IMG/VR virus record: IMGVR_UViG_3300045988_138996
Span: 165,775-229,774 of that record
Length of the DNA: 64,000 bases
Origin: a virus
Direction: 5' to 3' (one strand)
A model generated the notes under the pieces. It did no database searches, was not told where the DNA came from, and worked only from the letters and a program-made list of their open reading frames with translations. Below are positions 2,941 through 59,729 of the stretch, in pieces (position 1 is the first letter of the stretch; each line of letters opens with the position of its first letter). The position numbers and the translations under genes were made by a program.

Positions 2941-3684
2941 ATGGCTGATATAAAAGGTAAAGTTCTTGTCGAGAATGGTACTGGCGGTAAGGATTTATTT
3001 AATCCGAGTACGACAGCCGATCAAGTCGTATTTAGCGACGGTGAAACTCTCGAACAGAAATTTAAAAAATGGATCCCAAAGCATGCGATTCTTTCCGATC
3101 GTTCCGGTAATTCTGACCGAAGCGATTTGAGTGAAGATACTCGTAAGTTTATGGGTCATCCTGTCGAAGATTTTTTATTGCGTGATGAATTGTTGACGAC
3201 ATTAACGAAAGCTGCCGATACAAATTGTTGGAAGCAAAGTGTTAATAGTGTTGCCGATTTATTCACGACATATCCTGATGCAGTATTAGGTGATATTGCT
3301 GCAGTTAACGGTGGCGATACAGCCGGTTCTATTTATCGTTTTAATGGTACTGACTGGGAGATTTTAGTTAGAAATGGAAAAAGTATTTTACCTAATGCTG
3401 TTGTTGATAAAATTAATCAAAGCATTGTTCTTCAGAAAATAGAATTTGGCTCTAATAAATGGGTTAAGAATGGTACCGATGATTATCAACTTATATTAGA
3501 ACTGCCAAATGCTGAAGTTGTTAAAGTCGTAATCTACGACGGACAAATTAAAAAAGCTTCGACAATTACTTCTGAAGTTACAGATTCTCAAGTATTGTTA
3601 CGAAGCGTATATCCTGAACGTGGATATGTTTTATATTATAATACTCAAACAAGTAATGTTATTGAACATGGTGATACTGTATGA
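2941..3684 (+). CDS. Fibre-like structural protein
   Basis: aacgaaaagga leader/SD. N-terminal LFNPSTTADQVVFSDGETLEQKF resembles N-termini of Gram-positive phage fibre/receptor-binding proteins. First gene after a terminator. Confidence 0.5.
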   Translation: MADIKGKVLVENGTGGKDLFNPSTTADQVVFSDGETLEQKFKKWIPKHAILSDRSGNSDRSDLSEDTRKFMGHPVEDFLLRDELLTTLTKAADTNCWKQSVNSVADLFTTYPDAVLGDIAAVNGGDTAGSIYRFNGTDWEILVRNGKSILPNAVVDKINQSIVLQKIEFGSNKWVKNGTDDYQLILELPNAEVVKVVIYDGQIKKASTITSEVTDSQVLLRSVYPERGYVLYYNTQTSNVIEHGDTV

Positions 3685-11200: not shown

Positions 11201-12508
11201 AAAGTCGATTTTGCTGCTTGGACTCGTGATGTATACGGTACTGAAATTGCTCGTATTAAAGACGATATGATGACAGCTCAAGAAACTGATGCTGCTATCG
11301 ATGCTAAATTAGCGACTAATCTTGAAACTCTTAAAGGCATTTTCCAAGTTAAAGGTAATTACTTAACTCGTGAAGATTTAACTAATACTCTTAAAGATGG
11401 TTACATCACTAAGAATGAATCCGATCGTTTATATCAAGGTGTAGGCAACTATGCGACTATTGAATATGTCGACGATCAAATCGGTAAAAATAAAGTTAAA
11501 ATCGACGAAGTTAATACGGCTATTGCTAATAAACTTGATGTAAGTGCTGCGACTAGCCTATATCAAACTAAAGGCGATTACGTATTACATAGCGAACTCG
11601 ATACATTAGCAACTACTCCGACTTTTGCAAATGCTATTAATACAGCTATTGTAGGTAAAGGTTATCTCGATAAAGAAACTGCCGATGGTTACTATGCTCC
11701 TAAAGGTCAATATGTAACGACTGAAAATATCGAAGATGCAATCGCTACGAGTGCTGCCGTTACGGCTAAACAAGATGCTCTTACTTTCGGTAATGGTTTA
11801 TCTTATGATGCCGATACAAAAACTTTGACAGCTACCGGTACTGGTGCTTCTGTTGACTTAACTCCTTATGCTAAGAAAGCTGAATCCGATGCTAAGTATG
11901 GTCCAAAAGATACTTTAACTGAAGATCAAAAAGGTGTAGTAGAATCTATCCTTCGTGATAAGAACTATGCTACAAATGCAGATCTTGGTAGCTATAGTGC
12001 AAGCATGGATACTAACATTGGTCAATTAAGAGCTAGTATCAATACTTTAAAAGATACTACTGTTCCAGCTATCGATACTCGTGTAACTGCATTAGAAGGC
12101 AAAGCTGCTCCTACAGATTTCACTGAAGATCAAAAGACTAAATTAAATGAAATCCTTACTGGCAAACATTATACAACTTCTGATGATATCGACAATGCTA
12201 AAGCTGAACTTAAAAATGAATTAGCTACTCAAGATTCTGTAACTCAACTTGCTAACCAAACTCTTACAACTGCTGAAGGTAAAGTTAATGAAGCTAAAGA
12301 AGCGTTGGAAGGCAAAATCACAGAATTGAAAAATACTGTAGATGAAATCCATGTTCCAGATTTAAGTGCTTACGAAACTCAAGCTCAAGCAGAAGCTAAA
12401 TATTTAAAACTTGAAGATATCGAAACTAAGTTAAAAGAAAAAGGCTTTATTACTCAAGCTGATTTACAACCTATTCTCGATGCAATTAAAGCATTAAAAG
12501 GTGAATAG
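8267..12508 (+). CDS. Giant (1413 aa) Ala/Lys/Glu/Thr-rich fibrous protein, probable long tail fibre or whisker
   Basis: aaggaga SD. Low-complexity coiled-coil composition. Recurrent YQPKGEY / YQTKGDY / YAPKGQY / FQVKGNY motif and KADxxALxxKAD repeats. Confidence 0.7.
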   Translation: MSKKIVTRAYFGLYNPARKGLTIDTDNNNTGSQPAVYNKAVENVTKQAAENKATSAANKALAEANQAAVAKVAADLAAKQAQDVITFLSKVEAAAQYQPKGEYITDAKVAEKITEAQGKADEAAAAKFATKAELETATGGVSAQDLKTLKDAIDLLKDNPDSIAEIAKKADKDKVYDKDAIDKLIKKLNDKDTDLEKAIAKAATADDVVKAAELTEKVKAIVDLTPFAKATEVEATYAKKSDLADKADKAVIETELAKKANASDLTPLATKEEVAAKADVTALATKADQTALDNLKAEADANKAAVTAEVAARKSADTLNDAKVQGIADDVSKIKIDAAQAKVENEKALSRKADQEAVNTALAEKATKAEAAEAKQAAVDAAKEAAKANTALEGKADATALEPLATKEALKAAKDELIQAVEAAKTVAEEAKAEAKTGEAVTEAKEKATAADAKAKEVEAALVNYVTKAVADETYQPKGEYATKAEVQAIGSLDPTTLQSLKDLAQQLAGQADLTTVLDKLNKVFTKDEVNEKLAAKADVTALEEYAEKNDVISKLKDKADKVQVAEDIEAAKAVADAAVREVNTTAQQAKAKATENATGLEEAKTKVEKAIEDLGKLTTKVNDLALNGGAGGSLDAQAVADKVKEVVDAIVAQEKYVGETKLNEKLADKADVSALTAVQVKADKNASDLLAKADVSALADKADKTVFEAKATELDTKLNTLETATVPNLIDTKLTAKLAGYQEKGEYVTKEAADRDYQPKGEYATAAALEEVKTKANANEALINGLDKDTLVHTTDLDTYAKAAKVTEDISAAVAGLGDVYVAKADADVFAKKADVTTEIGAKATEIKKYADDTFATKQQLDNATIAAGGSGLTQTQVEGIVDNKLGALKDAVQTIANIQSGVNDNKSSVESILAELAKKATKDELAGKVATTDFEDAKQTLNTAITAQENALAAAKTALEKAINDKSEEAAAAYQTKVDFAAWTRDVYGTEIARIKDDMMTAQETDAAIDAKLATNLETLKGIFQVKGNYLTREDLTNTLKDGYITKNESDRLYQGVGNYATIEYVDDQIGKNKVKIDEVNTAIANKLDVSAATSLYQTKGDYVLHSELDTLATTPTFANAINTAIVGKGYLDKETADGYYAPKGQYVTTENIEDAIATSAAVTAKQDALTFGNGLSYDADTKTLTATGTGASVDLTPYAKKAESDAKYGPKDTLTEDQKGVVESILRDKNYATNADLGSYSASMDTNIGQLRASINTLKDTTVPAIDTRVTALEGKAAPTDFTEDQKTKLNEILTGKHYTTSDDIDNAKAELKNELATQDSVTQLANQTLTTAEGKVNEAKEALEGKITELKNTVDEIHVPDLSAYETQAQAEAKYLKLEDIETKLKEKGFITQADLQPILDAIKALKGE

Positions 12509-15149: not shown

Positions 15150-16274
15150 ATGCCTGATCAAATACAAAATATTTCGAATGAAATTTTAGAATATAAAGAT
15201 AAAATTTTCTTTAAGATGTTTAGCGATATCTTAAAAGAAAAGAAAGCGCCTTTTCCTGAAAATATTGCGCATTATCTAAATTTGTTGATTTCGACTGTAG
15301 GAATAAGACCTGAAAGAATTATATTAGAATCTGTTAAAAAAGAAAATAATCAATATATCGTATCATTAAGAGGTCCATTCGATAGCTATATCGAAATTAA
15401 CGGTATTCCGACTCATTTTGATAATGAAGGTAATATAACTGATTTTAGCGTACCGATTTTGATTAAAGCAGACGATATTCTTAATTTCTATATTTCGGTC
15501 GTTAATTTTCCTTATAAAAAAGAAAAACCTGCTAGCTACACTAACAATAAAACAGTTCAAGATATGATTAATACTATCGAAATTTCCGATTTATTAGAAA
15601 CATATAATAAAATCGAAGAACCTGCTATCGGCGTATTAAAATATCTTAACAATATTGAAGCTACTTACGATGTAATACCTCATTGGATAAGTAAATTAGA
15701 CGCTCAAAATACTACAGGTAAGGGATTTATTAATTTTACAAATGGTTCAAATGTACCAATAAAAATAGTATTTAACAATCAGGAACATATTCTTTTAGAA
15801 AATAATTCTATCGATGTTCCATTTGATTTAGATGAATTTTTAGAAGTTTATAAAAATCCTGAATATAATCAAGTTCATATAAATAACTCAGAAGGAACAA
15901 ACGTATCGAATGTTCAAATCATGGATCTTTTAACTCAAGAAGAGTTAAATAATGTTCGATTAACTGTAAATACTGCTATCAATAGAACTAACGATCAAGA
16001 GTTCCCGGCAAGAATTAAACCAATTCTTGCTAATACTAAGTTTTTCGGCGAAGCCGGATACTATGTTAATTTCATGGGCTCCGTTATAAAAGTACCGTCT
16101 CAAACTGAAGCCAACGGTGGTATTCCAGTATCCAAGGCTGAAGTTTTAGCTATGGATGAAAATAATAAAAAACTATTTATTTGTGATAAAGATGGGAATA
16201 TGATTGGTAAATCAATTACTCCGACAACCTTTGTTACTAATAATGTAAAAACAATAAAAGCATTGATTAAATAA
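15150..16274 (+). CDS. Receptor-binding/fibre paralog 1 of 3 (conserved N-terminus, unique C-terminus)
   Basis: aaggaga SD. N-terminal ~90 aa shared with the 16288 and 17903 products (MPDxIQxIxNEI, APFPExI, Y(L/I)EING). Confidence 0.55.
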   Translation: MPDQIQNISNEILEYKDKIFFKMFSDILKEKKAPFPENIAHYLNLLISTVGIRPERIILESVKKENNQYIVSLRGPFDSYIEINGIPTHFDNEGNITDFSVPILIKADDILNFYISVVNFPYKKEKPASYTNNKTVQDMINTIEISDLLETYNKIEEPAIGVLKYLNNIEATYDVIPHWISKLDAQNTTGKGFINFTNGSNVPIKIVFNNQEHILLENNSIDVPFDLDEFLEVYKNPEYNQVHINNSEGTNVSNVQIMDLLTQEELNNVRLTVNTAINRTNDQEFPARIKPILANTKFFGEAGYYVNFMGSVIKVPSQTEANGGIPVSKAEVLAMDENNKKLFICDKDGNMIGKSITPTTFVTNNVKTIKALIK

Positions 16275-16287
16275 ATAAGGAGTATAC

Positions 16288-17868
16288 ATGCCTGATAATA
16301 AAATACAAGATATAGCTAACGAGATTACGGCTTACAAGCCGTATACATTATTTTCTTTGATGGAAAAATCTTTAAAAGAAAATAACGCTCCATTTCCAGA
16401 AGAAATTGAATATTATTTAAAGAAAATGATTAAATCAATTGGTATTGGCATCAACAGTCTTTTTATTAGCAATGTCGTTAAAAATGATAATAAATATACG
16501 TTTACTATTAGTACTCAACCATTTAGTTATTTAGAAATAAACGACGTTTCTCAAAATATTAAAGAAAATACTAGTATTACTGTTGAAGCCAACATCGACG
16601 AAGAAAATCCATTTCCGTATGTTAAATTTTTATGGGCTCCTAAGAATAAAAAATTACCTGAAGGATATCAAAAACCTGAAGATAGTGAATACTTAAAAAA
16701 TTGTACTAATAATTTTTCTTTAAATAAAGACGATGTTCATATTAACGACGTTGAAGTTGGTTATTTGTTATCTAGAAGTATATTCTCTACTTTTTTCCCG
16801 ACAAATAAACCATATGTATCTATTCCTAATGAAGATATAAGTAAAATAAAAATTAATAATCTTGCTCCGAATAAAAAATATAACATAAAAGGATTTAAAT
16901 TTACAGCCGATGAAAATGGCGAAGCAGTAATTAATGAAGCAACAAGCGTTGCCGAGAAGTTTAATGAACTTGTGACAAACGTTCCTGTTTCTTTTGACTA
17001 TGACGGTAAATTTAAAGATTATATCGATATTGCAACATATGCCGATATACCTATTACAATGGACCATTCAAAAGATAGTCTTCCATCGGTCTTTTATCGA
17101 GATTTCTTTCTTTATAATGGACTATTTGGCGATAGTGACAATTATTTACATCATATTGTAAATAATTATCATGAGCCATTAGAAATAGAATATCTAGGGG
17201 AAACAAAAATTATTCCTGTCGGACAAAATTCTGAAGAATTTAGTTCTAAAATTACTGCCGATCTTTTGTCAAAAATAAAACCAGATACAACTGAAATAAA
17301 GTTAAAAATTAAAAATAATTTTAATTATCCTTGGACAAAAGAAATTGAGCATCCTAATCAATATAATATTTTAGGCCAAAATTGTATTCGTAACCTTACT
17401 AGTCAATCTTATTTTTATTATGATTATTCTTTTGAAGAACTTAAAGCATTCAATTTTAATGGTAAATCTTGTAGTTTAGCAAAAAACGAATATGGATATC
17501 GCACAGATCTTGAAAGACAATTCTATACTGTCGATAATGTGTATAAAACTATTTCTGATACAGAAGCATCTGGAGCTGTCGATCTTCTTCCACCAGGGAA
17601 CTTACCAAGTCACACAGATAATTTAACTTTTGTTTTATGTGGAGATAAAACTTCTAGAACATCTAGAACATTTAATTTCTCCCAAGGGATAAAAACTATT
17701 AACTCGATTAAAGCTTATAAAAAAGATGGGAATTGTCATATTCTTTTAAATTATAATACGAATACACAAAATAATATAGAAGAAGATTTAGGTTTAGAGC
17801 GATTTTTGTTTACAGAATCTGAAGCGCTTCAAGCATCTGGTATTTTAATTGCGACAGAAGAATTTTGA
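16288..17868 (+). CDS. Receptor-binding/fibre paralog 2 of 3
   Basis: aaggag SD. Shared N-terminal module, unrelated 430-aa C-terminal part. Confidence 0.55.
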   Translation: MPDNKIQDIANEITAYKPYTLFSLMEKSLKENNAPFPEEIEYYLKKMIKSIGIGINSLFISNVVKNDNKYTFTISTQPFSYLEINDVSQNIKENTSITVEANIDEENPFPYVKFLWAPKNKKLPEGYQKPEDSEYLKNCTNNFSLNKDDVHINDVEVGYLLSRSIFSTFFPTNKPYVSIPNEDISKIKINNLAPNKKYNIKGFKFTADENGEAVINEATSVAEKFNELVTNVPVSFDYDGKFKDYIDIATYADIPITMDHSKDSLPSVFYRDFFLYNGLFGDSDNYLHHIVNNYHEPLEIEYLGETKIIPVGQNSEEFSSKITADLLSKIKPDTTEIKLKIKNNFNYPWTKEIEHPNQYNILGQNCIRNLTSQSYFYYDYSFEELKAFNFNGKSCSLAKNEYGYRTDLERQFYTVDNVYKTISDTEASGAVDLLPPGNLPSHTDNLTFVLCGDKTSRTSRTFNFSQGIKTINSIKAYKKDGNCHILLNYNTNTQNNIEEDLGLERFLFTESEALQASGILIATEEF

Positions 17869-17902
17869 CCATTTATAATATAAAATAAAAGGATAATTTA
17901 AT

Positions 17903-18994
17903 ATGTCTGAAAACAATCAAATTCAAGAAATTTCTAAATTAATAGCTTCATTATTTTCTCAAGGTTTTAAGCCAGAATTCGAGAAATTTTTAGCCGACAA
18001 AAACATTCCGTTTGCAAACCAAACAGATTTATATATACAACGATTATTTAATAGCGTATTAAATATCCCGAACGTTGAAATTATTTCTTACGACTTTAAT
18101 GGCTCTGATATTACAGTAAAATTATCTGGGCCTTTTAAATCTTATGCTAATATCAATGGTAAAGATGTTAATTTTGATAATAATGGAATTGCGACTACTG
18201 TTGTTAAAAATGCAAAAGTTTCCTCTCAAAATGAAATCTTTTTAAATTTATTAATTCAGTCTGCACCATTTAGAACAGAAAAAGATTCTTCTTTTGTTAT
18301 TGATTCTTTTTCTGCAGAAGAAGATATTGAGAGCAAAACTTTTGATCTTGCTTATGAAGAAGAAGATAGATTATATAAATTTTTAATTTCTAAAAAAATA
18401 TATAACGATAGTTTATCAAATATTCTTAGAGCCGAATTTTTAAATAATAAAATTATTGTTAAAAATACAGCGCCATTCGATATTTATGTTAACAATCAAA
18501 AGATTAAGAAAAATTCTAAAATAGAAATTCCACTTACTATTAAAAATTTATTAGATAGTAATAATACTTATTCTGGAACTATTTATGATTGGAACAATAA
18601 ACAGCTAATGGGCGATTACGGATCAATTATCTCGACACAAGCTTTTAGCGCAGATATAGAGCAAAAATTTAATGAATTATTTGACCGAACAAAAGATTAT
18701 AATCAAGATGGATTATATTTTGACAAAGATTCTGCTCTTAGAGATTATAATAGTTCTAAAATTAATTTTAAAAAGACTATTGAATTCAAAAATAATAATC
18801 CTATAAAATATCATATAATCGATCATTATGGAATAAAATCTGGTCAAGTAACTCCAGCAGATCTTAAAGATATTGTTGCTTATCAATGTCCATCTTCATT
18901 AGAAACATATTTTTATGATTCTACCGGTAAACAGAAATATATTGGAAATTTTGGCATCAATGATGGCTTTATTATTTTTGATGTAGGTGAATAA
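17903..18994 (+). CDS. Receptor-binding/fibre paralog 3 of 3
   Basis: aaagga SD. More diverged copy of the shared N-terminal module (NQIQEISKLI, IPFANQ, SYANINGK). Confidence 0.5.
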   Translation: MSENNQIQEISKLIASLFSQGFKPEFEKFLADKNIPFANQTDLYIQRLFNSVLNIPNVEIISYDFNGSDITVKLSGPFKSYANINGKDVNFDNNGIATTVVKNAKVSSQNEIFLNLLIQSAPFRTEKDSSFVIDSFSAEEDIESKTFDLAYEEEDRLYKFLISKKIYNDSLSNILRAEFLNNKIIVKNTAPFDIYVNNQKIKKNSKIEIPLTIKNLLDSNNTYSGTIYDWNNKQLMGDYGSIISTQAFSADIEQKFNELFDRTKDYNQDGLYFDKDSALRDYNSSKINFKKTIEFKNNNPIKYHIIDHYGIKSGQVTPADLKDIVAYQCPSSLETYFYDSTGKQKYIGNFGINDGFIIFDVGE

Positions 18995-24067: not shown

Positions 24068-24445
24068 ATGAAATATCCACGAGCCGCTATGGTTCATAAA
24101 TTTTTATTTATGATGCTAGTTGAACTAGCTCCTTATACTCGAGGCTCTCTCGATTTTTTACATGTATCGAACGAAGCTTTTCGTCTATTAATGAATATCG
24201 TAAGAGACGAACATAATATATCGTTGTATAACGAAATGCGATCGTACTCTTTAGATTATCAAGGTCTTATCGATAGAGAACATAATAATTATAATATCTT
24301 AGGCGAGCGAATTAAAGTTCTTATTATGATGATTGTTAATTCGTTCTATATGTTTAATAAATGTGATGAACGATATTTTAATCTTTATAAAGATAAAATA
24401 AGAGGAGTACGAAATGTTAAATTCTTTAGATATACGCAATATTGA
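24068..24445 (+). CDS. Hypothetical protein, tandem paralog family A (1 of 7)
   Basis: ggagg SD. Helical, Tyr/Asn-rich. Similar size and motifs to the next six ORFs. Confidence 0.6.
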   Translation: MKYPRAAMVHKFLFMMLVELAPYTRGSLDFLHVSNEAFRLLMNIVRDEHNISLYNEMRSYSLDYQGLIDREHNNYNILGERIKVLIMMIVNSFYMFNKCDERYFNLYKDKIRGVRNVKFFRYTQY

Positions 24446-24788
24446 GAATTTTAAGCTCGATATCATTCATTATATTGCCACTATTGTGGATAAAACCTGG
24501 TGGACCTCTAAACATTTTAATCAAAGATATTATGAAGTGGCCGATATCTATAATATATCGGTTCTTGCGCTTGCTGATTTTAAGGGTGGCGATTATTTAA
24601 AACTTGGATTCATTAGTTATACTTCTATTTATTATTATATTATAGATTGTAGTAATAAAAAGATGCTCACCGAGTGCGAGAAGAAATATATCGAACTTAG
24701 TATTTTATATTATAATAAATATCGACAAGATAAAGATTTAACAGGTATAATAATTAAACAAATGAGGTTAGATAATGGACTATTATGA
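24414..24788 (+). CDS. Hypothetical protein, family A (2 of 7)
   Basis: aggag SD. IIHYIATIVDKTWWTSKHFNQRYYEVADIYNI and a LYYNKY-type helix. Confidence 0.6.
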   Translation: MLNSLDIRNIENFKLDIIHYIATIVDKTWWTSKHFNQRYYEVADIYNISVLALADFKGGDYLKLGFISYTSIYYYIIDCSNKKMLTECEKKYIELSILYYNKYRQDKDLTGIIIKQMRLDNGLL

Positions 24789-25146
24789 AACTAGAGTATC
24801 TCTAATATTTTATTTATACGAAATGGTCGATAAGGATTCTTGGCGGCTTAATAATAGTTTAAATAAATTTAGAGTTGTATCTGATTTATATAGAATATTA
24901 TTGGATGTGTTATCCGAGTTCGTTAATGTGCGTTATGGTAATCTTAGCGATGCAAATGAAGAAGACGTAAGAGAAGTTATTACCGACAGCGCCTACTGCT
25001 CCTTGTCAAAATTCAAAGACGAAAAAGCACTTCGTTATATAAAAATTACGTATCTATTATATAATAATATTCGCGATCTGCCATGGAACTTATCCGATAA
25101 AATTTGTAAAACTATACGAGAAGGAAAATATGAATGCCAAAAATAG
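24775..25146 (+). CDS. Hypothetical protein, family A (3 of 7)
   Basis: LIFYLYEMVDKDSWRLNNSLNKFRVVSDLYRI and LLYNNIRD, parallel to members 2 and 6. Confidence 0.6.
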   Translation: MDYYETRVSLIFYLYEMVDKDSWRLNNSLNKFRVVSDLYRILLDVLSEFVNVRYGNLSDANEEDVREVITDSAYCSLSKFKDEKALRYIKITYLLYNNIRDLPWNLSDKICKTIREGKYECQK

Positions 25147-25471
25147 AACGATAGCCGTACTTAAATATATTAATTCTATAGAATCAGCTAAATCTCGGTA
25201 TATAAATAATGCTTCTGAAAATATAGTCTGTACTATTTATTATATTTATAAAGATATAATAAGAGAATTATCGCCGGGTCATCACGTATTAAAAAACGTT
25301 AGTTCTATTAGAGCTCATGTTTTAATACAACAAGATACAAGCTACGCTTTACCGGAAAAATATCGTAAGTTAATTACGTTAATTTCTTTTTATTATCGTC
25401 CAGGGTCATTTTTTCCTCTTGTCGAAATGATAATAGAACGAAGTAAAAATTTGTTTGGAGGAAAGTTATAG
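25130..25471 (+). CDS. Hypothetical protein, family A (4 of 7)
   Basis: gaaggaaaa SD. Same length class and motif order. Confidence 0.55.
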   Translation: MNAKNRTIAVLKYINSIESAKSRYINNASENIVCTIYYIYKDIIRELSPGHHVLKNVSSIRAHVLIQQDTSYALPEKYRKLITLISFYYRPGSFFPLVEMIIERSKNLFGGKL

Positions 25472-25822
25472 ATGGATAGACAAAAGGAACTTGTCGAATA
25501 TATATATAAACTTATTAATTCTAATTTTCGATATAGAAAATATAAGATACACGATAAGACTTTCGTCGTTCATTTTGTTTATAATTTATTCTATGCTATA
25601 TTTAAAGCATCTTATCCGAGAGATAGAATACAACCAATTGCGTCGAAATTTCATTTTAATCTCGTTATGTCTCATAAAGCAAAAAATGCATATTATCCGT
25701 CTAAAAAAGAAAAGAAGATAATAAACGTTGCATTATTTAATTATAACGCAACTGAATATAATAATTCTAAGTTAAAAGATCTTGTCGATCTGGCTCAGCA
25801 TTATATGGAGAAATTTAAATAA
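25472..25822 (+). CDS. Hypothetical protein, family A (5 of 7)
   Basis: ggagg SD. YIYKLINSNFRYRKYKIHDKTFVVHFVYNLFY parallels member 7. Confidence 0.6.
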   Translation: MDRQKELVEYIYKLINSNFRYRKYKIHDKTFVVHFVYNLFYAIFKASYPRDRIQPIASKFHFNLVMSHKAKNAYYPSKKEKKIINVALFNYNATEYNNSKLKDLVDLAQHYMEKFK

Positions 25823-26244
25823 TGAGTATTACTAAATATTTTAACGAAGAAGAATATGTTACACATTGTGCTAAGCTAAAAGAAGATATGATACTTTATA
25901 TAAATCAGTTTCTTCACTCAAATCATTGGAGGATGAATTATCCATCAGATCATTACGTTATGATATCTGATATATATAATATAGCACATCCTTTATTATA
26001 CGATTTTAAAGATAATTGGCACGATCATTTATCTGATACTAACTTTGTCGAAGTTAGTGAATATGCTAAATATTTTAAAAGTCGGATACCGTTAGCCGAC
26101 GATGTTAAAGTTTTCATTCAGATCGTTATATTATATTATTTTAAACATTTCGAAAATTCTAATTTTATGATTATATATAATAAGATACTCGATGACATGT
26201 GTGAATTTTATGATACGTCAGTAGTATTGAGTAAAAGGATTTAA
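25822..26244 (+). CDS. Hypothetical protein, family A (6 of 7)
   Basis: TAATG overlap. ILYINQFLHSNHWRMNYPSDHYVMISDIYNI parallels members 2 and 3. Confidence 0.6.
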   Translation: MSITKYFNEEEYVTHCAKLKEDMILYINQFLHSNHWRMNYPSDHYVMISDIYNIAHPLLYDFKDNWHDHLSDTNFVEVSEYAKYFKSRIPLADDVKVFIQIVILYYFKHFENSNFMIIYNKILDDMCEFYDTSVVLSKRI

Positions 26245-26247
26245 ATA

Positions 26248-26607
26248 ATGACTGTAATGAACGGCGCTCGAGAAATCAAGATAGTACTCTTTATACGCAA
26301 ATTAATTAAGGAGCACAAAAAATACATTAATTATCGCATCAGCGACGAAGGATTTATTGTTTTCATGGTGTTTAATTATTATTATGAGGTCATGAAACGG
26401 ATTCATCCTAAAGCACAAGTATGGCAGCTAAAAAATACATTCGATGTATGTACCGTTATGCGACATAAGAAAATAAAATATAAACTAAGTAAAGAAGATA
26501 AACGATGTATTCTTATAGCATTTCATCTGTTTAATCGCATAGAATATAATAAAACATTAGTCGATAATGTTATTGCTAATTTATTTAAGCTAAGAGAATA
26601 TCATTAA
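26248..26607 (+). CDS. Hypothetical protein, family A (7 of 7)
   Basis: LFIRKLIKEHKKYINYRISDEGFIVFMVFNYYY parallels member 5. Confidence 0.6.
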   Translation: MTVMNGAREIKIVLFIRKLIKEHKKYINYRISDEGFIVFMVFNYYYEVMKRIHPKAQVWQLKNTFDVCTVMRHKKIKYKLSKEDKRCILIAFHLFNRIEYNKTLVDNVIANLFKLREYH

Positions 26608-27033: not shown

Positions 27034-27312
27034 ATGAAAAAGACAGTAGCAACAGTAATGGTAGCAACAGTAGTAGGAATGACAATGTGGTTTGCAACAC
27101 CAGTTGCACCAGATCACTACGAAATGCATGTTGTTAAAGGAGGTGAAACTATTACAAGCATCATAGAAGATGCTAATCGTAACACGGATGTCAACTATGA
27201 CATTCGCGAAGCTGTTGCAACATCTGTTGCTAAATCAGCTAAGATGGAAGGAGGAGTGACAAGCAGATCAATCCATCCAGGAGAAAAGATTGCTGTTCCT
27301 ATCTACAAGTAA
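27034..27312 (+). CDS. Small membrane-anchored LysM-like protein (YneA-like architecture)
   Basis: aggagg SD. N-terminal TM helix, then VVKGGETITSII...IHPGEKIAVPIYK resembling a LysM fold with an insertion. Confidence 0.45.
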   Translation: MKKTVATVMVATVVGMTMWFATPVAPDHYEMHVVKGGETITSIIEDANRNTDVNYDIREAVATSVAKSAKMEGGVTSRSIHPGEKIAVPIYK

Positions 27313-27398: not shown

Positions 27399-27833
27399 AT
27401 GACAACAACAACTTATTTAAATTTAGAAACATTGGCAATCGAAACAAAGAATAGTGCAAGAGATTATATGGATCTCTTAGACTCTGCTCAAAAGTATTAT
27501 GCCAAGAAAGGCATAAGAACTATGAAAGGAAGAATAGGAGATGTATGTTTCTTGCAAGAAAGGGAATGTAGGAATGTTCTTATGCTTGCAACAATGGATG
27601 GTCATACAAAATGTGACCTTAAAACAGTAACAGACAAGATTATGTCACTGCCTTACTATGCTGTAGCACGAGGCTATATGCCGGGTGTATTCCGCACATG
27701 GTCTCAGTGCAAAGATTCTACAGACGGTTTTACCGGCAGAAAGTACAAAAAATTTGCCGGTAGAGAAGCTGCCATCCAGTTTATGATAGATAACAATGCT
27801 CCATTAGTGAGCTATGATTATCTAACAAAATAA
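27399..27833 (+). CDS. Protein with a C-terminal RNase H1 N-terminal-type hybrid-binding (HBD/viroplasmin-like) domain
   Basis: aaggagg SD before ATG 27399. YYAVARGYMPGVFRTWSQCKDSTDGFTGRKYKKFAGREAAIQFM fits the fYaV.rGr.pGiy..W.ec...v.g..ga.yKkF pattern. Confidence 0.6.
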   Translation: MTTTTYLNLETLAIETKNSARDYMDLLDSAQKYYAKKGIRTMKGRIGDVCFLQERECRNVLMLATMDGHTKCDLKTVTDKIMSLPYYAVARGYMPGVFRTWSQCKDSTDGFTGRKYKKFAGREAAIQFMIDNNAPLVSYDYLTK

Positions 27834-27857
27834 TTGTTTTTAGAGGAGGAATTCAAA

Positions 27858-28898
27858 ATGAAAAGTATGTTAGAATTAAAGAAAGCATTTGCAGCAACAA
27901 AAAAAGTTAATAATAGTGGTGATTGGTTGCAACATAAAGCAACTCTTCAAGAATTAAAAACAGCTAATATTAGATGTCTAATTATTAGCGAAGAATCTTG
28001 CATTCTCGATGTAGTTGGCGCAAATGTAACTGGTGCCATTACAATGGAAGATGTTAAAGAATCCGCTGTTGTAGTTAAGGGCAAAGGCGTTAATTTCGAT
28101 GGAGACTATCGATTGACAGAAAAGTCGATGGCCAACGTCGAAAACATTATTGATGATCTTTTGCTTATTGTAGGGAACTTCAAAGAGAAAGAAGATGCAT
28201 GTAATTCTTTTACATTTGAAGGAGATGTATATGTACCAATCTCTTTATCGGCAAGTGCGTTAAGACAAGGAAAACGCTTTGCTGTTAAAGAAGAATTGTT
28301 AGATAAATGGTTAACCAAATTGAAAAAAGTTAACCATGGTATTGGTAGCTTTGAAGGAGAAAAGACTCTTAAGGTCGGAAAGGCGACTAAACTTTCTACA
28401 TATGGCAACTTATGGTCTGCCAACGGTAAAGAATTCGTTGTCGACCTTAACGAATATTGCTTCATGATATTTGATAACATGGCAATATTCGGTACAGAAG
28501 ATAACATGGATGGTCAATCATATCATTCGCATTATGATTTTTGCGAGTTATATGGCTGTCCAAAAGATAAACCATTATATCTACAGGCTCGTGTTTCCGG
28601 ATGTACTAAAACTGGTAGTTTGCCAGTTAAAAATATGTCCGGATTTTGGGCATTGGCAGCAGAGTGCAAACAATACTCTGTAATGTCTCTGTCTGAAGTA
28701 GACAGAGACTATTCTGGTGAAGAACCAGCTGTATGGATTGTCGGTAATCCATGCGGCAAATTATTATATGTAACCGATTTTAACGGCTTTAAAGCCGTCC
28801 CAGGTTACATAGATCCGAAGGAGAACACATTTAAAGTTCTTCAGATTATTGAATCGACGCAAGCAAAAGTGTCGAGTCAATTGATTCAACACATTTAA
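27858..28898 (+). CDS. Putative first-barrel subunit of a split YonO/RdRP-like RNA polymerase
   Basis: agaggagg SD. NMDGQSYHS followed by LQARVSGCTKTG resembles the SDGxGxIS and QIRxGGxKG signatures of cellular-type RdRPs. Confidence 0.5.
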   Translation: MKSMLELKKAFAATKKVNNSGDWLQHKATLQELKTANIRCLIISEESCILDVVGANVTGAITMEDVKESAVVVKGKGVNFDGDYRLTEKSMANVENIIDDLLLIVGNFKEKEDACNSFTFEGDVYVPISLSASALRQGKRFAVKEELLDKWLTKLKKVNHGIGSFEGEKTLKVGKATKLSTYGNLWSANGKEFVVDLNEYCFMIFDNMAIFGTEDNMDGQSYHSHYDFCELYGCPKDKPLYLQARVSGCTKTGSLPVKNMSGFWALAAECKQYSVMSLSEVDRDYSGEEPAVWIVGNPCGKLLYVTDFNGFKAVPGYIDPKENTFKVLQIIESTQAKVSSQLIQHI

Positions 28899-28923
28899 TT
28901 TAAATAATAAGAGGAGAATAATC

Positions 28924-30093
28924 ATGAAAAAACAATATCTAGTAGAAAAATTAACAAAAGAAACTGTTAAACAATTTGAGTCCTACACTGAGGGCTCATT
29001 TGGAGGCACTGGTATAGATGCCGCCATTCTTGCTGATGGTAGAGTTGCATATGATAAATATGTATTCTCTGCTAAAGCAAATAGCTTAGCAAAGAACATG
29101 AGCAAAGTAATTAAGTCTTTAAAGATGTCTGGAGATTCTGACTCCAGATATCTTAGAGGTGCAGGTGATACTGTATGGATGTTTTCTCAAGGCATTCTTG
29201 CAGATGATGAAGTATTGGTAACAAATAAACGTTTGTTGCAACATGGCGAAGCATATGTTGTACGTTTCCCTCATAGCGCAAGAAGTGAATTTGCACACGT
29301 TCGTATGCTCGGCAAAGCTGAGTATATCGAACGTATTGAAGAAAGCGACTTAAAGCCCGCATTTAAGATGTTGGCAATTGAAGTTGCTAAAAGCTTACCA
29401 GAAACAACTTTCTTATGTTCTGGTAGTTCTGTATTTAAAGGTTTAACTGGTGGATCTGATTTCGATACAGATGGCTTTATGTTCCTAGTTGGCGAGGATG
29501 CTCAAATCTTCGCTGACTGGAAACAAAGATCTGTCGATATTCCAGACGATATCGGTGAAGCTTCTTCTGTTACTTTTAATAATTTCTCTGAGCTAATGGA
29601 AGGCGTATTTAACGCTAACATTAGTACAGGTAACACAGACGTTGGTGAGTTTTGTGTCGCGACAAGCACAGCAATCACAGTATTGCAAAACTTGGACAAT
29701 GCAGAACTTATTAAAAAATTGCAAGAAAACATTGCTAAAGAATTTGGTAATGAATTCGATGGCAACGTAGAATATTCTCGTTATTATGTTGGTGATGAAG
29801 ATATTGCAATGGAGGACGTGCGTAATGCTAAAATTGAAAGCATTACAATGTCTTTCGTTGCGTCTGATCGCAGTGCAGAATCTATTAAAGCATATTTAGA
29901 AGATGTGCTAGAAGCTGCACCTGCAGTAATTGGCATGATTATAGATAGTGCTAAAACAGGCTTAAAGGTGTGGGATCCATTAAGCTTCTTGTTCGACGGC
30001 ATCAAACAAGCACGTCGATCTGCTCCTCCTAAAATTAAGTGGAACGAAGAAGAATCTAAATTCTTCGTAGAGGAGGATAGCAGAGTTAAATAA
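28924..30093 (+). CDS. Putative catalytic (second-barrel, DxDxD) subunit of a split YonO/RdRP-like RNA polymerase
   Basis: agaggaga SD. GEAYVVRFPHSARSEF, TGGSDFDTDGFMFLVGED and IIDSAKTGLKV occur in the same order as the RNPxxHPGD, sGsDLDGDxyxvxWD and AVDFPKTG motifs. Confidence 0.7.
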   Translation: MKKQYLVEKLTKETVKQFESYTEGSFGGTGIDAAILADGRVAYDKYVFSAKANSLAKNMSKVIKSLKMSGDSDSRYLRGAGDTVWMFSQGILADDEVLVTNKRLLQHGEAYVVRFPHSARSEFAHVRMLGKAEYIERIEESDLKPAFKMLAIEVAKSLPETTFLCSGSSVFKGLTGGSDFDTDGFMFLVGEDAQIFADWKQRSVDIPDDIGEASSVTFNNFSELMEGVFNANISTGNTDVGEFCVATSTAITVLQNLDNAELIKKLQENIAKEFGNEFDGNVEYSRYYVGDEDIAMEDVRNAKIESITMSFVASDRSAESIKAYLEDVLEAAPAVIGMIIDSAKTGLKVWDPLSFLFDGIKQARRSAPPKIKWNEEESKFFVEEDSRVK

Positions 30094-30139
30094 TTAATTC
30101 ATTGTGCGACCGACACGTTAATCCGGCAAGGAGTTCAAA

Positions 30140-31099
30140 ATGAAAAAACAACAAGAGGTTATTTATTTAAAAGATACAATGTACGAATTACAGTTAGAGG
30201 CTGCAGTTCGTGCAGTAGAGGAAATTAATGTTGTACTAGAAGCTAATGGTATCGCAGGTAATATTGAAAAGTTGCCAGCTAAAGGCTTCTTTGATACATA
30301 CAACAAAATCTGCGCAGATTTGAGCAAGTCCGAATCTATCGATATCAAAGGCTTAGATATCGAAGGTAACTTTAGCAAAGCTAAAGAATACATTGCGAAC
30401 ACTATTCGCATGTATTTAGGCGATGCGGAAGACAAATATGAAGCCGCTAAAAACAGTGGCTTCAATTTTGCCAGCTCTGTATTAGAGTACGAGCTTGTAA
30501 TGAACAGTATCACAAGTGGTGCTATCTGGCGCAGAAAAAATGGGGAACAAGATTTAGCAAGTTCTCCATTAATGAAAGACATCGATGTGTTCTGCATCGA
30601 TCCTTCCAACAACAACATTCTTGACGGCGATCAAGTGGTGTTTGAAAACGGTCGTTCTTTAGATGGCCGTTTCTTCACATCTACTTCTGTTACTGGTGTG
30701 CAACCAGTGTTTAGAAGAGAAGATGGTGGTCTGTTCATCGTTGTTCATATTCTCGAAACATTAGAGGCGCCTACAGAAGAACCTATCTTCGCTGTTCGTA
30801 GTAGCGATAGTGAAAATGTATCCAAAAATATTTTCTTGGCGCAAGAAAAGGGTTATAAATTCTTCTTGCTTCCTAATAGTAAAGGGAAGCAAGGAGACGG
30901 TTTGTATGTAGAATCTATGAAAGAAGGCTCTGCAGGTAAACTTATTAAGATCATCTCCTGTGAAATTGTAGGAGATAAAACTTTTATTTCTCACTTCTGT
31001 GGCGAAGTAAAAGTTGACGATGTGTTATTCAACGTAATTAAGAAAGATGGTTACGGTGAAGATATTAAGTCTGCCACATTGTTGTTACGTAAAGCATAG
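30140..31099 (+). CDS. Hypothetical protein (319 aa), possible polymerase accessory factor
   Basis: aaggag SD. Same operon and composition as the polymerase ORFs. No motif recognised. Confidence 0.6.
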   Translation: MKKQQEVIYLKDTMYELQLEAAVRAVEEINVVLEANGIAGNIEKLPAKGFFDTYNKICADLSKSESIDIKGLDIEGNFSKAKEYIANTIRMYLGDAEDKYEAAKNSGFNFASSVLEYELVMNSITSGAIWRRKNGEQDLASSPLMKDIDVFCIDPSNNNILDGDQVVFENGRSLDGRFFTSTSVTGVQPVFRREDGGLFIVVHILETLEAPTEEPIFAVRSSDSENVSKNIFLAQEKGYKFFLLPNSKGKQGDGLYVESMKEGSAGKLIKIISCEIVGDKTFISHFCGEVKVDDVLFNVIKKDGYGEDIKSATLLLRKA

Positions 31100-36444: not shown

Positions 36445-37709
36445 GAGTATATATATAGTCTTATAGGAGCTAGATAGGCCAATAAGGATTGGTGAATATT
36501 TAGTATATCGTGATATAGTATATCGTATTATACTATAGTAGTATATAGTAAATATGTGAGATCCTTATTTACAGTAAAAAGAAAAATTCGGCCTTGAAAA
36601 TTTACAGGTCGTAGACCGGAAAATTTTAAGTATTTTCCGCCCGGGGATATCTATATCATATATATAGTATAAGAAGGAACGTAGTGACTGGTAGATATAT
36701 ATTATGTTAATAATATAGTATATTTTCTGCCGTCGGTATTTTGTTAAAAGAGAGACTACTATATATAATAATTTCCGCCTAGGATATTATGGTTTATATA
36801 TAATATGTTTTTAGTTAATGTTTTTCCTGTATGCATACGCATACAGATATTAAAAACTTTTAGGGTGGGATATCTTATAATAATATTGAACGTCAGTGAA
36901 ATGTTATTATAGATTTAAATCTATATTAGATATAATTTTAATGAGAGCTATTAATGTGAAGAATAGGGAGCGCCGCGAATCTATTCAGCTATTAAAATTC
37001 TTAGTCGACACGATAGTATAGTATGGTAGAGATCGTGTCGATAGGTTACGAGTGCTAACGAGTTATATGTAGAATTCGTTGAGATGAAGGATGTTATCGA
37101 TGAGCCCGCGAAGAGAAACATCGTTCTTTAGAATTCGTAACAATATATCTAATGCGTTTGTGTATTATCAATATATATCAAGAAAATATATACTGATGTG
37201 TTTGAGTGAAGCTTGCGAAAAGAAAAACGCAATCAATTTTTATATATCGTAACGAAGCCCGTAAGGGTTCGTATTAGTATTATATATAGCTTATGAATAT
37301 AAGCGTATGTATATAACTATTAATACGAATTATACCAAAGTATTAGAAGTTAGTAAGCGTCTAATAAGTAGGTGGTTTTTGTTTGGGATCCGCCGTTATC
37401 TTAGTATTTCATTTACTAGCTAAGGTATTTAAAAGTCCCTTGCGTTTATTTTAGTCGAGTTATTTTATATATAATATTATATATAATAATAACGAAGAGC
37501 CATTACTGTTAAGAATGGATAGTAGACGAAATTGGGAACGGGCCCCAATAATAGTTATTATATTCTCTTAGAGAATATATAACGTCAATGGTTCGTCGTG
37601 TACGATCCTTTTCGAGTTTCGCAGAAAATTACGTAAGTAAGAGTTTGTAGCATTTGTAAAATGGGACAACATTTTGTTAGTATTCTCGCTATGTTACACA
37701 TAGCGACAC

Positions 37710-37739
37710 AAAAAAAGACCCCGAATTAATTTCGAGGTC
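37710..37739 (-). terminator. Minus-strand rho-independent terminator
   Basis: On the - strand: gacctcgaa-atta-ttcggggtc with a T-G wobble (a C-A mismatch on +), then T7. Confidence 0.6.
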
Positions 37740-37762
37740 GTTATATATTGTTTACTAAAAGC

Positions 37763-37791
37763 GATGAACTACGTTCATCGGTATATTACTC
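37763..37791. promoter_or_regulatory. Class B element 1: 7-bp hairpin plus GGTATATTACTC
   Basis: gatgaac-tac-gttcatc followed by GGTATATTACTC (37780-37791). Confidence 0.65.
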
Positions 37792-37839
37792 ATGTTTAAG
37801 TATAAGTTATTAATAATTTAAAAAAATAATTCAGAAAAT

Positions 37840-37859
37840 AAAAAAGACCCCGAAGGGCC
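37840..37859 (-). terminator. Minus-strand terminator with a UUCG loop
   Basis: On the - strand: ggccc-ttcg-gggtc with a G-T wobble (an A-C mismatch on +), then T6. Confidence 0.6.
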
Positions 37860-37935
37860 ATTTTTATATAAGTATTTTTTTAATATTCAAAGCGGTGCGA
37901 AGCGAAGCGTAGCAAACCGTGGAGCGTAGCGGAAC

Positions 37936-37964
37936 GGTGAACTGCGTTCACCGGTATATTACTC
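37936..37964. promoter_or_regulatory. Class B element 2: 7-bp hairpin plus GGTATATTACTC
   Basis: ggtgaac-tgc-gttcacc followed by GGTATATTACTC (37953-37964). Confidence 0.65.
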
Positions 37965-38097
37965 TGTTTAGATACGTCGTTAATCAAAAATAAAAAAATA
38001 TTTTTTATTTAATTCTATTATATATATAACAAGCAATAAAAAAAACAGCCTCAGATTTTTATGACCTGGACTGTTTTGTGTGTGTAAAAACGGAAGC

Positions 38098-38128
38098 GGT
38101 GTAACGTAGTTACACCGGTATATTACTC
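38098..38128. promoter_or_regulatory. Class B element 3: 8-bp hairpin plus GGTATATTACTC
   Basis: ggtgtaac-gta-gttacacc followed by GGTATATTACTC (38117-38128). Confidence 0.65.
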
Positions 38129-38234
38129 AAGTTAGGTATATCATTAATCAATTTTGTAAAAATAATTAAATATTCATTATTAATGCATAAAGTAAGACAG
38201 GGGTATTTTTAAGTTAAAAAAATAGAAAAAATTA

Positions 38235-38259
38235 AAGTCAGATAATATCTGGCTTTTTT
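38235..38259 (+). terminator. Plus-strand rho-independent terminator in the ORF-free region
   Basis: gtcagat-aat-atctggc with a T-G wobble that works only on +, then T7. Confidence 0.55.
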
Positions 38260-38695
38260 TAATTTTAATGTCTGGTTTAGTATATATAGGAAACAATAAA
38301 ACATAATATACAGAATATGTATATTTATGAATACGAGCTTTTTTCAAAAGCGTTCGCCTACCATAGCTTACTCCGAAAAGTTTAAATGAAACGTCGTAAG
38401 CGTACTAGTGACGCGGGTTTTTAATAATTTTATATTTTAAAATTATGTAGGGTTAGGAACGAGGTATATAAAAATTGCTCCCTTAATAGTTCTTATTTAT
38501 CTCTTATATATACTATATATATAATATAAAAGGATTATTTTTTTATATAGTCCGCCGTCTCCTCACGAGCGCCAACCTGAGTTATATTTAGCTATATATA
38601 TAGGTATTGCTATAGCTTTATTTAGCTCTGTATATACGGCTAGACCTATTTAAAACATCTTACCTGTATAGGTAGCTCCCTTGGGGGGTGGGGGG

Positions 38696-38984
38696 AGTCC
38701 GCAACACTCTCAAGTTTGTTATTTTTAAGTAAAAACTAGTAAAAATTGTTTATGGCTATTAAAACGATTAAGAGTTGGTAACACTCTGTATTTGCTGTTA
38801 ATTAACTAAAAATGGCTGTTTTTATATATACAGCTATTAAAATCATTTTAAGTCCGCAACACTCATAATGTCTCCCTTTTTACACAAAAACAGCTTATTT
38901 TGCAATAACTAAGTTTCGTATTTTTGCAGTATTTTATAATATTTTAGTTTATGACTATTAATATCTATTAAGTCCACAACATTC
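38696..38984 (+). repeat. Four iteron-like 14-mers (AGTCCGCAACACTC family)
   Basis: 38696-38709 agtccgcaacactc; 38773-38786 agttggtaacactc; 38851-38864 agtccgcaacactc; 38971-38984 agtccacaacattc. The last three are preceded by a CTATTAA-N-ATT-AAG context. Confidence 0.65.
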
Positions 38985-39029
38985 ATAAAAACGTCTTAAA
39001 TAGTTAAAAACAATATATTTTCATATTAA

Positions 39030-39057
39030 ATGTATTTGGTCATATGTATTTGGTCAT
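39030..39057 (+). repeat. Perfect tandem duplication of a 14-mer
   Basis: atgtatttggtcat x2 (39030-39043 and 39044-39057), bordering an extremely AT-rich tract (39058 to about 39340). Confidence 0.8.
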
Positions 39058-39490
39058 ATAATATATTTAATTAATATAGTGTATTGCTATATATATCATT
39101 AATCTGTTATAGCAACTTTATTAGTATTTAATAGCTATATATAGTCATATATATAGTTTATTGTTATATTATATATATGGTTTAATATATATTGTCATAT
39201 ATATGTATATAGTTAACGTATTATATTATAGTTTATCATTAGTATAGTATTAACAGTTATATTAGTATTTAGTATTATGTTATTAGTAGTATTAGTGTTA
39301 TTATATATATAGTAAGAGTAATAATAAAGAGAAACTATTAAATGAAAAGATGCGGGCGATTTTGTATATTGTTTTTTATATCAATCTAATGAATTGCCGC
39401 ATTTGATTTTTATATGTATGATATATTTATCAGCATATGATTAATAACTGTATATGGTTTTATATATATAAGGCTAATGTCATTAAGTAC

Positions 39491-39508
39491 GTGCTCCGCA
39501 CCGAAATC
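39491..39508 (+). promoter_or_regulatory. Class A hairpin-GAAATC motif, copy f
   Basis: gtgc-TCC-gcac then c-GAAATC. 46 nt before ATG 39554, at the head of the small-gene array. Confidence 0.7.
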
Positions 39509-39553
39509 TCCCGTAGTCCTTTTTTATTATATAGGAATTAATGAGCGTAGAGA

Positions 39554-59625: not shown

Positions 59626-59729
59626 TGATTCTAAAATGTCCTGGAAAAGTTTTACTGAAAATTTGTTTTTCTGGCAAAAATATGTTATAATTATCTCGTA
59701 ATATAATATTAGAAAGCGAGGTGATTATA

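Follow-up and report, generated by a model that had tools for sequence, protein, structure and literature searches.

This work concerns a 64,000-nucleotide (nt) stretch of viral DNA, positions 165,775 to 229,774 of IMG/VR record IMGVR_UViG_3300045988_138996 (hereafter the window), and three consecutive open reading frames (ORFs) on its + strand that are very probably the pieces of one two-barrel RNA polymerase (RNAP) of the clade that holds YonO and the RNA-dependent RNA polymerases (RdRPs). ORF1 (27858-28898, 346 amino acids (aa)) comprises an N-terminal beta-rich region and the first, beta-like double-psi beta-barrel. In ORF2 (28924-30093, 389 aa), N-terminal helices precede the second, beta-prime-like double-psi beta-barrel, which bears the metal-binding loop; a helical region follows and ends in an IIDSAKTG motif. 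ORF3 (30140-31099, 319 aa) comprises the C-terminal polymerase module as a third gene. The three genes lie in three different reading frames. The original prediction had described a polymerase split over two genes between its barrels. We find the ORFs, the spacer, the ribosome-binding site and the motifs as it described them, and the split stands; the number of genes does not, as there are three, ORF3 being homologous to the C-terminal module of single-chain relatives. Homologues lie on Caudoviricetes contigs of about 220-240 kb, which indicates that the window is jumbo phage DNA; it has 31% GC and encodes a DnaE-type replicase at 9-2858.

The ATG of ORF1 has AGAGGAGG on its 5' side, at 27842-27849. 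Junction 1 (28896-28923, + strand) consists of the TAA stop codon of ORF1 (28896-28898) and a 25-nt spacer with the Shine-Dalgarno sequence AGAGGAGA (28910-28917), six nt 5' of the ORF2 ATG, and junction 2 (30091-30139, + strand) of a TAA stop codon and a 46-nt spacer with the Shine-Dalgarno sequence AAGGAG (30128-30133). Within ORF1, NMDGQSYHS (residues 216-224, nt 28503-28529) and LQARVSGCTKTG (residues 242-253, nt 28581-28616) hold the catalytic signature of the first barrel (28509-28610, + strand), namely D218-G219 (28509-28514), Q243-x-R245 (28584-28592) and K251 (28608-28610). The signature of the second barrel (29263-29472, + strand) lies in ORF2, with R114-x-P116 (29263-29271) and E122 in GEAYVVRFPHSARSEF (residues 108-123) and D179-F-D181-T-D183 at 29458-29472, exactly where DFDTD had been placed. 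The motif VVRFPHSARSEF was likewise found in the ORFs of the window. IIDSAKTG (29938-29961, + strand; D341, K344) is the counterpart of the 'AVDFPKTG'-type motif of RdRPs.

Eight residues are invariant across two-barrel RNAPs, in QDE-1 D709, R738, K743, R962, P964, D1007, D1009 and D1011 (PMC2919709). ORF1 residues D218, R245 and K251 and ORF2 residues R114, P116, D179, D181 and D183 are the counterparts of all eight; the residue set of the superfamily, one Asp with a basic pair and R-x-P with DxDxD, is present in the ORF1/ORF2 pair. The catalytic residues that the original prediction singled out are invariant in 15-sequence family alignments of ORF2 (A1) and ORF1 (A2), as is the IIDSAKTG motif in A1. 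They are near-invariant in about 100 distant relatives: D218 and R245 are each present in 95/98 and K251 in 96/98, R or K at position 114 and P116 each in 104/105, all three of D179, D181 and D183 in 106/106, D341 in 103/103 and K344 in 97/103. The signature residues are also retained in all five types of the locus (A to E, see below). The proposed equivalent of RNPxxHPGD holds in part, as R, P and E are conserved in the R-x-P region of ORF2 but the His position is occupied by H or C. The spacing in ORF1 is D-27-R-6-K, compared with D709-29-R738-5-K743 in QDE-1 (PMC2919709), and the 27 residues from D218 to R245 (29 in QDE-1) compare with about 140 in Rpb2 (D837 to K979). This short spacing implies that ORF1 has no sandwich-barrel hybrid motif (SBHM)/flap insertion in its beta-like barrel, which is the RdRP/YonO-type condition (PMC7824862).

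Profile searches place both barrels in long single-chain proteins. A search of 1.84 billion representatives with the A1 profile, built from 15 ORF2 homologues, yielded 114 proteins, the majority 900-1,900 aa long and matching at about residues 450-900. Homologues in the 5.8-billion-protein collection are all unnamed or 'hypothetical' and without a Pfam domain, and blastn and tblastn searches (the latter with ORF2 and P0165 as queries) against 50,697 deposited phages gave no match. About 100 relatives are single-chain (645-1,923 aa), and three of the nine tested pass the gathering score of 23.8 for Pfam RdRP PF05183 (P0165 with 45, P0163 with 26.6 and P0158 with 25.8 bits). The ORF1 profile matches P0158 at residues 161-475 (E=1.7e-25 on the scale of the whole library), and the ORF2-like part follows directly at 487-884; after local iteration, the ORF1-like part was found upstream of the ORF2-like part in 98/98 long relatives. 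When ORF1, ORF2 and ORF3 are concatenated (1,054 aa), BLASTP against P0158 yields one high-scoring segment pair (HSP; E=3.4e-69) that runs from 29 to 1051 of the concatenation and from 154 to 1249 of P0158, through both gene borders. Four other proteins (P0189, P0218, P0199 and P0264) may be further split forms or fragments; no IMG/VR relatives were found for P0156, P0189 and P0218.

The best PDB sequence match of the family profile is QDE-1 (E=1.7e-4); in the alignment, DG...Q.R...KG and GGDxDGD follow each other in the same order, and GGsDfDgDg of the profile is set against GGDYDGD of QDE-1. A broad profile (A4) aligned by hhalign to SPbeta YonO with 84% probability (E=7.6e-6) over 366 columns, covering YonO residues 137-558 and both barrels. 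The predicted folds agree with this placement. AlphaFold2 models built on alignments of 68-69 sequences reached a predicted local distance difference test (pLDDT) score of 83.3 and a predicted template modelling (pTM) score of 0.75 for ORF1, and 88.3 and 0.80 for ORF2, and the secondary structure around the motifs is barrel-like in both. In Foldseek searches against the PDB, QDE-1 and RDR2 came out on top for both models: all of the top 21 matches of ORF1 are RDR2 or QDE-1 (E down to 2.7e-5), with only noise beneath, and the top 15 of ORF2 are QDE-1 or RDR2, followed by weaker beta-prime/Rpb1 chains, crAss-like gp66 and the phiKZ non-virion RNAP (nvRNAP). As separate single-chain models, ORF1 and ORF2 each match the corresponding half of QDE-1/RDR2 with a probability of about 1.0. 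The best match of ORF2 in BFVD is A0A8S5SZT9 (E=3.4e-5), a 1,048-aa single-chain 'RNA dependent RNA polymerase' of an uncultured Podoviridae sp. Transitive profile homology, collinearity and the QDE-1/RDR2 fold matches together bear out the placing of the first barrel in ORF1 and of the second in ORF2.

Two other memberships were considered and rejected. For the multisubunit beta/beta-prime RNAPs, there was no RpoB or RpoC match in Pfam or PHROGs, the beta-prime chains among the ORF2 fold matches are weak (E>0.1) and rank beneath all RdRPs, and no beta/Rpb2 chain occurs among the PDB fold matches of ORF1. For the family D DNA polymerase (PolD DP2), no entry appears in the top 50 PDB fold matches of either model, nor among the profile matches.

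Several results weigh against assigning the locus to this clade. Searched individually, ORF1, ORF2 and ORF3 gave nothing meaningful in Pfam and PHROGs, and ORF1 and ORF2 had no credible match among PDB sequences. The direct match of both ORFs to Pfam RdRP that had been proposed as a check did not appear, PF05183 matching neither ORF1 nor ORF2 even at E<=1. Normalised to the query, the TM-scores from Foldseek are only 0.3-0.45, since the targets are 2-3 times longer and multi-domain. The ORF3 family profile has no match in PDB sequences, Pfam or YonO, and hhalign of the narrow profiles A1 and A2 against YonO gave a probability below 1%. The YonO label therefore stands for the clade and fails for the YonO family proper, which the narrow profiles do not reach: judged by sequence profiles, the relation to YonO is one at the clade level, not at the family level. 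The assignment is based on transitive profiles and predicted folds, and we infer polymerase activity, the template (DNA or RNA), the product and the assembly of the subunits. A phage-specific recurrent promoter motif, finally, was not found in the window.

With these points weighed, we propose the following mechanism. The three products would be made from one operon and would assemble into a heterotrimer, with the active site at the ORF1/ORF2 interface as in beta/beta-prime. ORF2 would provide R114, P116 and the DxDxD loop, in which the catalytic Mg2+ is bound, and ORF1 would provide D218 for the second metal and the basic pair R245/K251 that contacts the incoming nucleoside triphosphate and the RNA 3' end. 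ORF3 would add a C-terminal module particular to the lineage, which may serve in handling nucleic acids or promoters. As YonO, gp64 and gp66 suggest by analogy, the likeliest job of the enzyme would be the DNA-dependent transcription of a class of phage genes without the host RNAP. We regard this full statement, including heterotrimer assembly and the role as transcriptase, as likely.

A genuine two-barrel polymerase could also serve an end other than phage transcription, as an RNA-dependent RNA polymerase, as a primase-like primer synthase for the DnaE-type replicase encoded at 9-2858, or as a maker of counter-defence RNA. The closest solved structures, QDE-1 and RDR2, are RNA-dependent, QDE-1 has both DNA- and RNA-dependent activities (PMC9508822), a gene with an RNA/DNA-hybrid-binding domain (HBD) often adjoins the locus, and the missing promoter motif points the same way. 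This HBD gene is, however, dispensable in some lineages, no other RNAP or sigma factor was seen in the 64-kb window, and the characterised phage members of the clade, YonO, P23-45 gp64/gp96 and crAss-like gp66, are all DNA-dependent transcriptases (PMC5467207, PMC10770324, 10.1101/2020.03.07.982082). YonO carries out processive DNA-dependent RNA synthesis and transcribes the late genes of SPbeta (PMC5467207). We consider such another role unlikely, though it deserves to be kept in view beside the transcriptase role. A scan of the window for sigma-70-like promoters was at chance level, with 15 found and 16 expected. The only recurrent intergenic 9-mer, AGTATTTTA, occurs 41 times with one mismatch allowed, against 33 +/- 5, and it was ruled out as a phage promoter motif by its lack of enrichment and of an extended shared context.

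The 319-aa ORF3 had been put forward as a possible accessory subunit, and this suggestion does not hold. ORF3 is homologous to the segment right after the ORF2-like part of single-chain relatives (P0158 917-1251, P0162 818-1129 and P0169 811-1052); its match to P0158 has E=3.8e-10 in a set of 113 proteins, and 83 sequences were recruited on iteration. In 81/81 relatives that have an ORF3-like part, it lies downstream of the ORF2-like part. By this homology, ORF3 is a C-terminal module of the same enzyme and not an accessory factor. That ORF3, the HBD protein or both are unrelated neighbours of a two-subunit ORF1+ORF2 enzyme could be argued from the lack of a Pfam, PDB or YonO counterpart of ORF3, and from YonO itself, which functions at 839 aa without such a module (PMC5467207). 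Yet the single HSP of the concatenated ORFs runs through the ORF2/ORF3 border, and ORF3 adjoins ORF2 in all four split types of the locus, often translationally coupled, which together with the P0158 match leaves a two-subunit enzyme a slim chance.

The split is not particular to the window. A three-gene layout occurs in four types of one syntenic locus, on many independent contigs of about 215-237 kb: type A (the window, 346+389+319 aa, and L011, 346+388+318 aa), type B (L001 and L014, 353+402+324 aa), type C (L015, 400+446+356 aa, and L016, 404+437+354 aa) and type E (L019, L023 and L045, standing among 37 IMG/VR loci, 368-369 + 466-477 + 350-353 aa). ORF1-sized (345-353 aa) and ORF2-sized (388-412 aa) proteins form separate protein clusters, with hundreds of members from many samples and assemblers. 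The equivalents of junction 1 in L011, L001, L015 and L016 each have a stop codon and a Shine-Dalgarno sequence, and their spacers, of about 12-88 nt, differ in sequence. At junction 2, L001 has a 1-nt gap, L011 a 26-nt spacer, L015 a 26-nt overlap, L023 a 4-nt overlap and L016 a 92-nt spacer. Within type A, the proportion of nonsynonymous differences (pN) is 0.13-0.17 and that of synonymous differences (pS) 0.71-0.75 in all three genes; the ratios of the corresponding rates (dN/dS), read with dS saturated, are 0.048 for ORF1, 0.088 for ORF2 and 0.038 for ORF3. The break that the original prediction had placed between the barrels is accordingly a true gene boundary, split in four diverged lineages under purifying selection.

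One polypeptide might nevertheless be made from the split genes, by programmed frameshifting or read-through, or if a small element at each junction were spliced out. Introns, inteins and recoding sometimes interrupt phage genes, such as the RNAP ORFs of zeta crAss-like phages (PMC7886860), and both spacers of L016 carry a structured repeat of about 70 nt. The spacers of types A and B (12-46 nt) are, however, too short for an intron, and their sequence and length vary between lineages; each downstream gene has a canonical Shine-Dalgarno sequence and an ATG, no intron was found in the region with Rfam, and a single chain would need two frame changes as well as a stop bypass at each junction. 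Recoding into one chain is very unlikely on this evidence, and we give the whole idea of a single product scarcely any credence. Although the majority of relatives are single-chain and sister phages carry a fused gene at the same locus, the chance that the stops are artefacts of a sequencing or assembly error or of a recent pseudogenising frameshift in a single-chain gene is practically negligible, given the separate clusters with hundreds of members, the recurrence of the layout in types A, B, C and E at only 24-52% identity, the stop and Shine-Dalgarno sequence at every junction with spacing from a 26-nt overlap to 92 nt, the dN/dS of 0.04-0.09 in all three genes and their three different frames; the recurrent layout, the kept stops and Shine-Dalgarno sites and the low dN/dS exclude assembly error and recent pseudogenisation. 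The elements of L016 lie in the two spacers of its polymerase operon (1794-1881 and 3196-3287), right before the Shine-Dalgarno sequences, with the inverted ends GTCAGCC...GGCTGAC and GTCGGCC...GGCCGAC. They were not seen in L015 or the window and may represent a small hairpin, mobile or regulatory in nature.

In the fifth type, D (L006, L008 and L010), a single gene of 1,488-1,495 aa stands in place of ORF1 to ORF3 at a locus syntenic with the window. The flanking genes of type D are mostly 60-88% identical to those of the window, whereas the fused gene is only 26-33% identical to ORF1 to ORF3. P0158 is a type D protein, encoded on IMG/VR contigs that include one of 229,888 bp. At its C-terminus (residues 1311-1473; gene at 6001-10470 of L006), it carries a YpsA/SLOG domain (PF06908, E=3.5e-15), for which the split versions have no counterpart. 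SPbeta, the YonO phage, likewise encodes a YpsA-like protein, yoqJ.

The polymerases of the five types are 24-29% identical in pairwise comparison, with A and B at 51-52% and outgroups at about 19.5%; at genes a few kb distant, the same contigs mostly share 60-94% identity. This marks the polymerase module as a hot spot of divergence, and the data fit cassette exchange and episodic fast evolution alike. A neighbour-joining (NJ) tree built with a capped Kimura distance has the topology ((A,B),(E,(C,D))). Out of 300 bootstraps, A+B was recovered in 299, C+D in 260, C+D+E in 293 and all five types together in 300, and a grouping of all split forms together in 1. The split is taken to be derived, because nearly all relatives outside this phage group are single-chain. 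The tree suggests, and no more than suggests, that the gene broke in three at the base of the group and that the pieces re-fused later in type D. Two points count against this order of events: it depends on a distance method at 24-29% identity, and the gene borders, although they fall in two linkers of poor conservation that are common to the types, differ in position by 5-15 residues from type to type, with which independent fissions are compatible. On the type D protein, the borders map to residues ~476/477 and ~912/913.

These observations lead us to a tentative scenario, which we hold to be possible and somewhat more doubtful than not. In a lineage of human-associated jumbo phages, a 'single-subunit' two-barrel RNAP would have become a heterotrimer through breaks in two linkers between domains, of which one lies exactly between the barrels, and the beta/beta-prime division of cellular RNAPs would have been re-enacted independently; type D would have re-fused the pieces, and the enzyme would travel as a hyper-divergent, exchangeable cassette. 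The hyper-divergence would point to an arms race in which host factors are directed against the phage polymerase.

Members of the RdRP/YonO clade have been described as single-subunit enzymes with both barrels in one polypeptide (PMC10770324, PMC7281927, PMC7824862, PMC7886860). Here, ORF1 and ORF2 are separate genes in four lineages. The single-chain phage relatives (P0165, P0163, P0158 and BFVD A0A8S5SZT9) share the domain order, the same 15 signature residues and profile homology over the full length, and differ in being one polypeptide of about 900-1,900 aa instead of three of 346, 389 and 319 aa, at an identity of 19-29%. QDE-1 of Neurospora and RDR2 of plants (PDB 2j7n, 7y7t, 7w88 and 7eu1) are the best structural matches and have the same D / R..K / R.P / DxDxD set. 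They are, however, RdRPs of eukaryotic RNA interference, single chains of about 1,000-1,400 aa that synthesise double-stranded RNA on RNA templates, with an identity of about 10-15% and no counterpart of ORF3 by sequence. YonO of the Bacillus prophage SPbeta, a minimal, single-peptide, DNA-dependent two-barrel RNAP of a phage, offers the best functional analogy (PMC5467207), although it is one 839-aa chain without an ORF3-like module. The crAss-like virion RNAP gp66 (PDB 6vr4) and P23-45 gp64/gp96 belong to the same major clade (PMC10770324) and have both barrels in one polypeptide (PMC7886860); their similarity to the window's enzyme is much weaker than that of QDE-1/RDR2, 6vr4 and crAss-like proteins being only weak fold matches.

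The other major two-barrel clade is that of the multisubunit RNAPs (PMC10770324). As in the window, each polypeptide has one barrel, and the active site is expected at a subunit interface; the order in the window, beta-like then beta-prime-like, matches rpoB-rpoC. The multisubunit enzymes differ in having the SBHM/flap insert, the clamp, the bridge-helix/trigger-loop and other large domains (PMC7824862). Among them, the fragmented beta/beta-prime sets of phiKZ- and AR9-like phages (PDB 8que; PMC7824862) also have a jumbo-phage setting in common with the window. The nearest precedent within the RdRP/YonO clade is the disrupted RNAP ORFs of zeta crAss-like phages (PMC7886860); the variable fusion and separation in crAss-like phages concerns neighbouring virion proteins and not the barrels. 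Neither crAss-like precedent is a conserved split between barrels. In the literature, which was covered incompletely so that absence there is no proof, no description was found of a split member of the clade or of this phage group.

A minimal enzyme of this clade would thus carry a break exactly between its barrels, plus a second one further on, under purifying selection in at least four deeply diverged lineages. Split and fused forms at one locus provide a natural comparison for the origin of RNAP subunits. Fission and fusion of the catalytic core become directly testable and, if the proposal is true, the locus is a ready-made system for the evolution of two-barrel subunit architecture. For a widespread group of jumbo phages of the human mouth and gut, the finding also brings to light an RNAP that had gone unannotated, and it points to the polymerase module as a hot spot of diversification.

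Upstream of the polymerase genes lies the HBD gene (27399-27833, + strand). Residues 85-128 of its 144-aa product form the RNase H1 N-terminal hybrid-binding domain (PF01693, E=8.9e-16) that the original prediction had named. Within type A the gene is only 46% identical; L014 has one of about 144 aa that is 40% identical along its whole length, types D and E have an HBD-bearing gene of 168-216 aa on the upstream side of the polymerase, and the L001 and L015 loci have none. It is a variable neighbour of the polymerase operon, at most an accessory and not a core part of the enzyme. All five locus types keep, a short way upstream of the polymerase region, a 92-aa gene with an N-terminal hydrophobic segment (27034-27312, + strand in the window), at 39-70% identity. 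Neither this 92-aa gene nor the HBD gene has a counterpart within the single-chain enzymes.

Seven paralogous genes of about 113-140 aa, without a family match, stand in tandem at 24068-26607, a short distance upstream of the polymerase region; the array is 74-91% conserved in L001, partly conserved in L014 and L023 and absent from L006 and L010 of type D. In the structural region, an ORF of 1,413 aa (8267-12508, + strand) has no PHROG or Pfam match save a weak, sub-threshold DUF4795, and the large ORFs at 15150-18994 are likewise without a PHROG or Pfam assignment. When species-representative genomes were searched with A1, only L014 (CALHKE010000018.1, 125,926 bp) was found, binned in a metagenome-assembled genome (MAG) of Candidatus Saccharibacteria, and one NCBI homologue is labelled as coming from a Segatella salivae MAG. 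Both are probably mis-binned phage contigs. Elsewhere in the window, an OTKONC RNA (Rfam RF03053) matches at 37519-37684 (+ strand; 160 bits, gathering score 141, E=2.9e-26), inside a 2.3-kb stretch without long ORFs (37253-39553). At 59721-60983 (+ strand), a TnpB-like gene (OrfB_IS605, E=4.9e-31) with a Cas12f1-like TNB domain is an IS200/IS605-type element or an RNA-guided nuclease within the phage genome.

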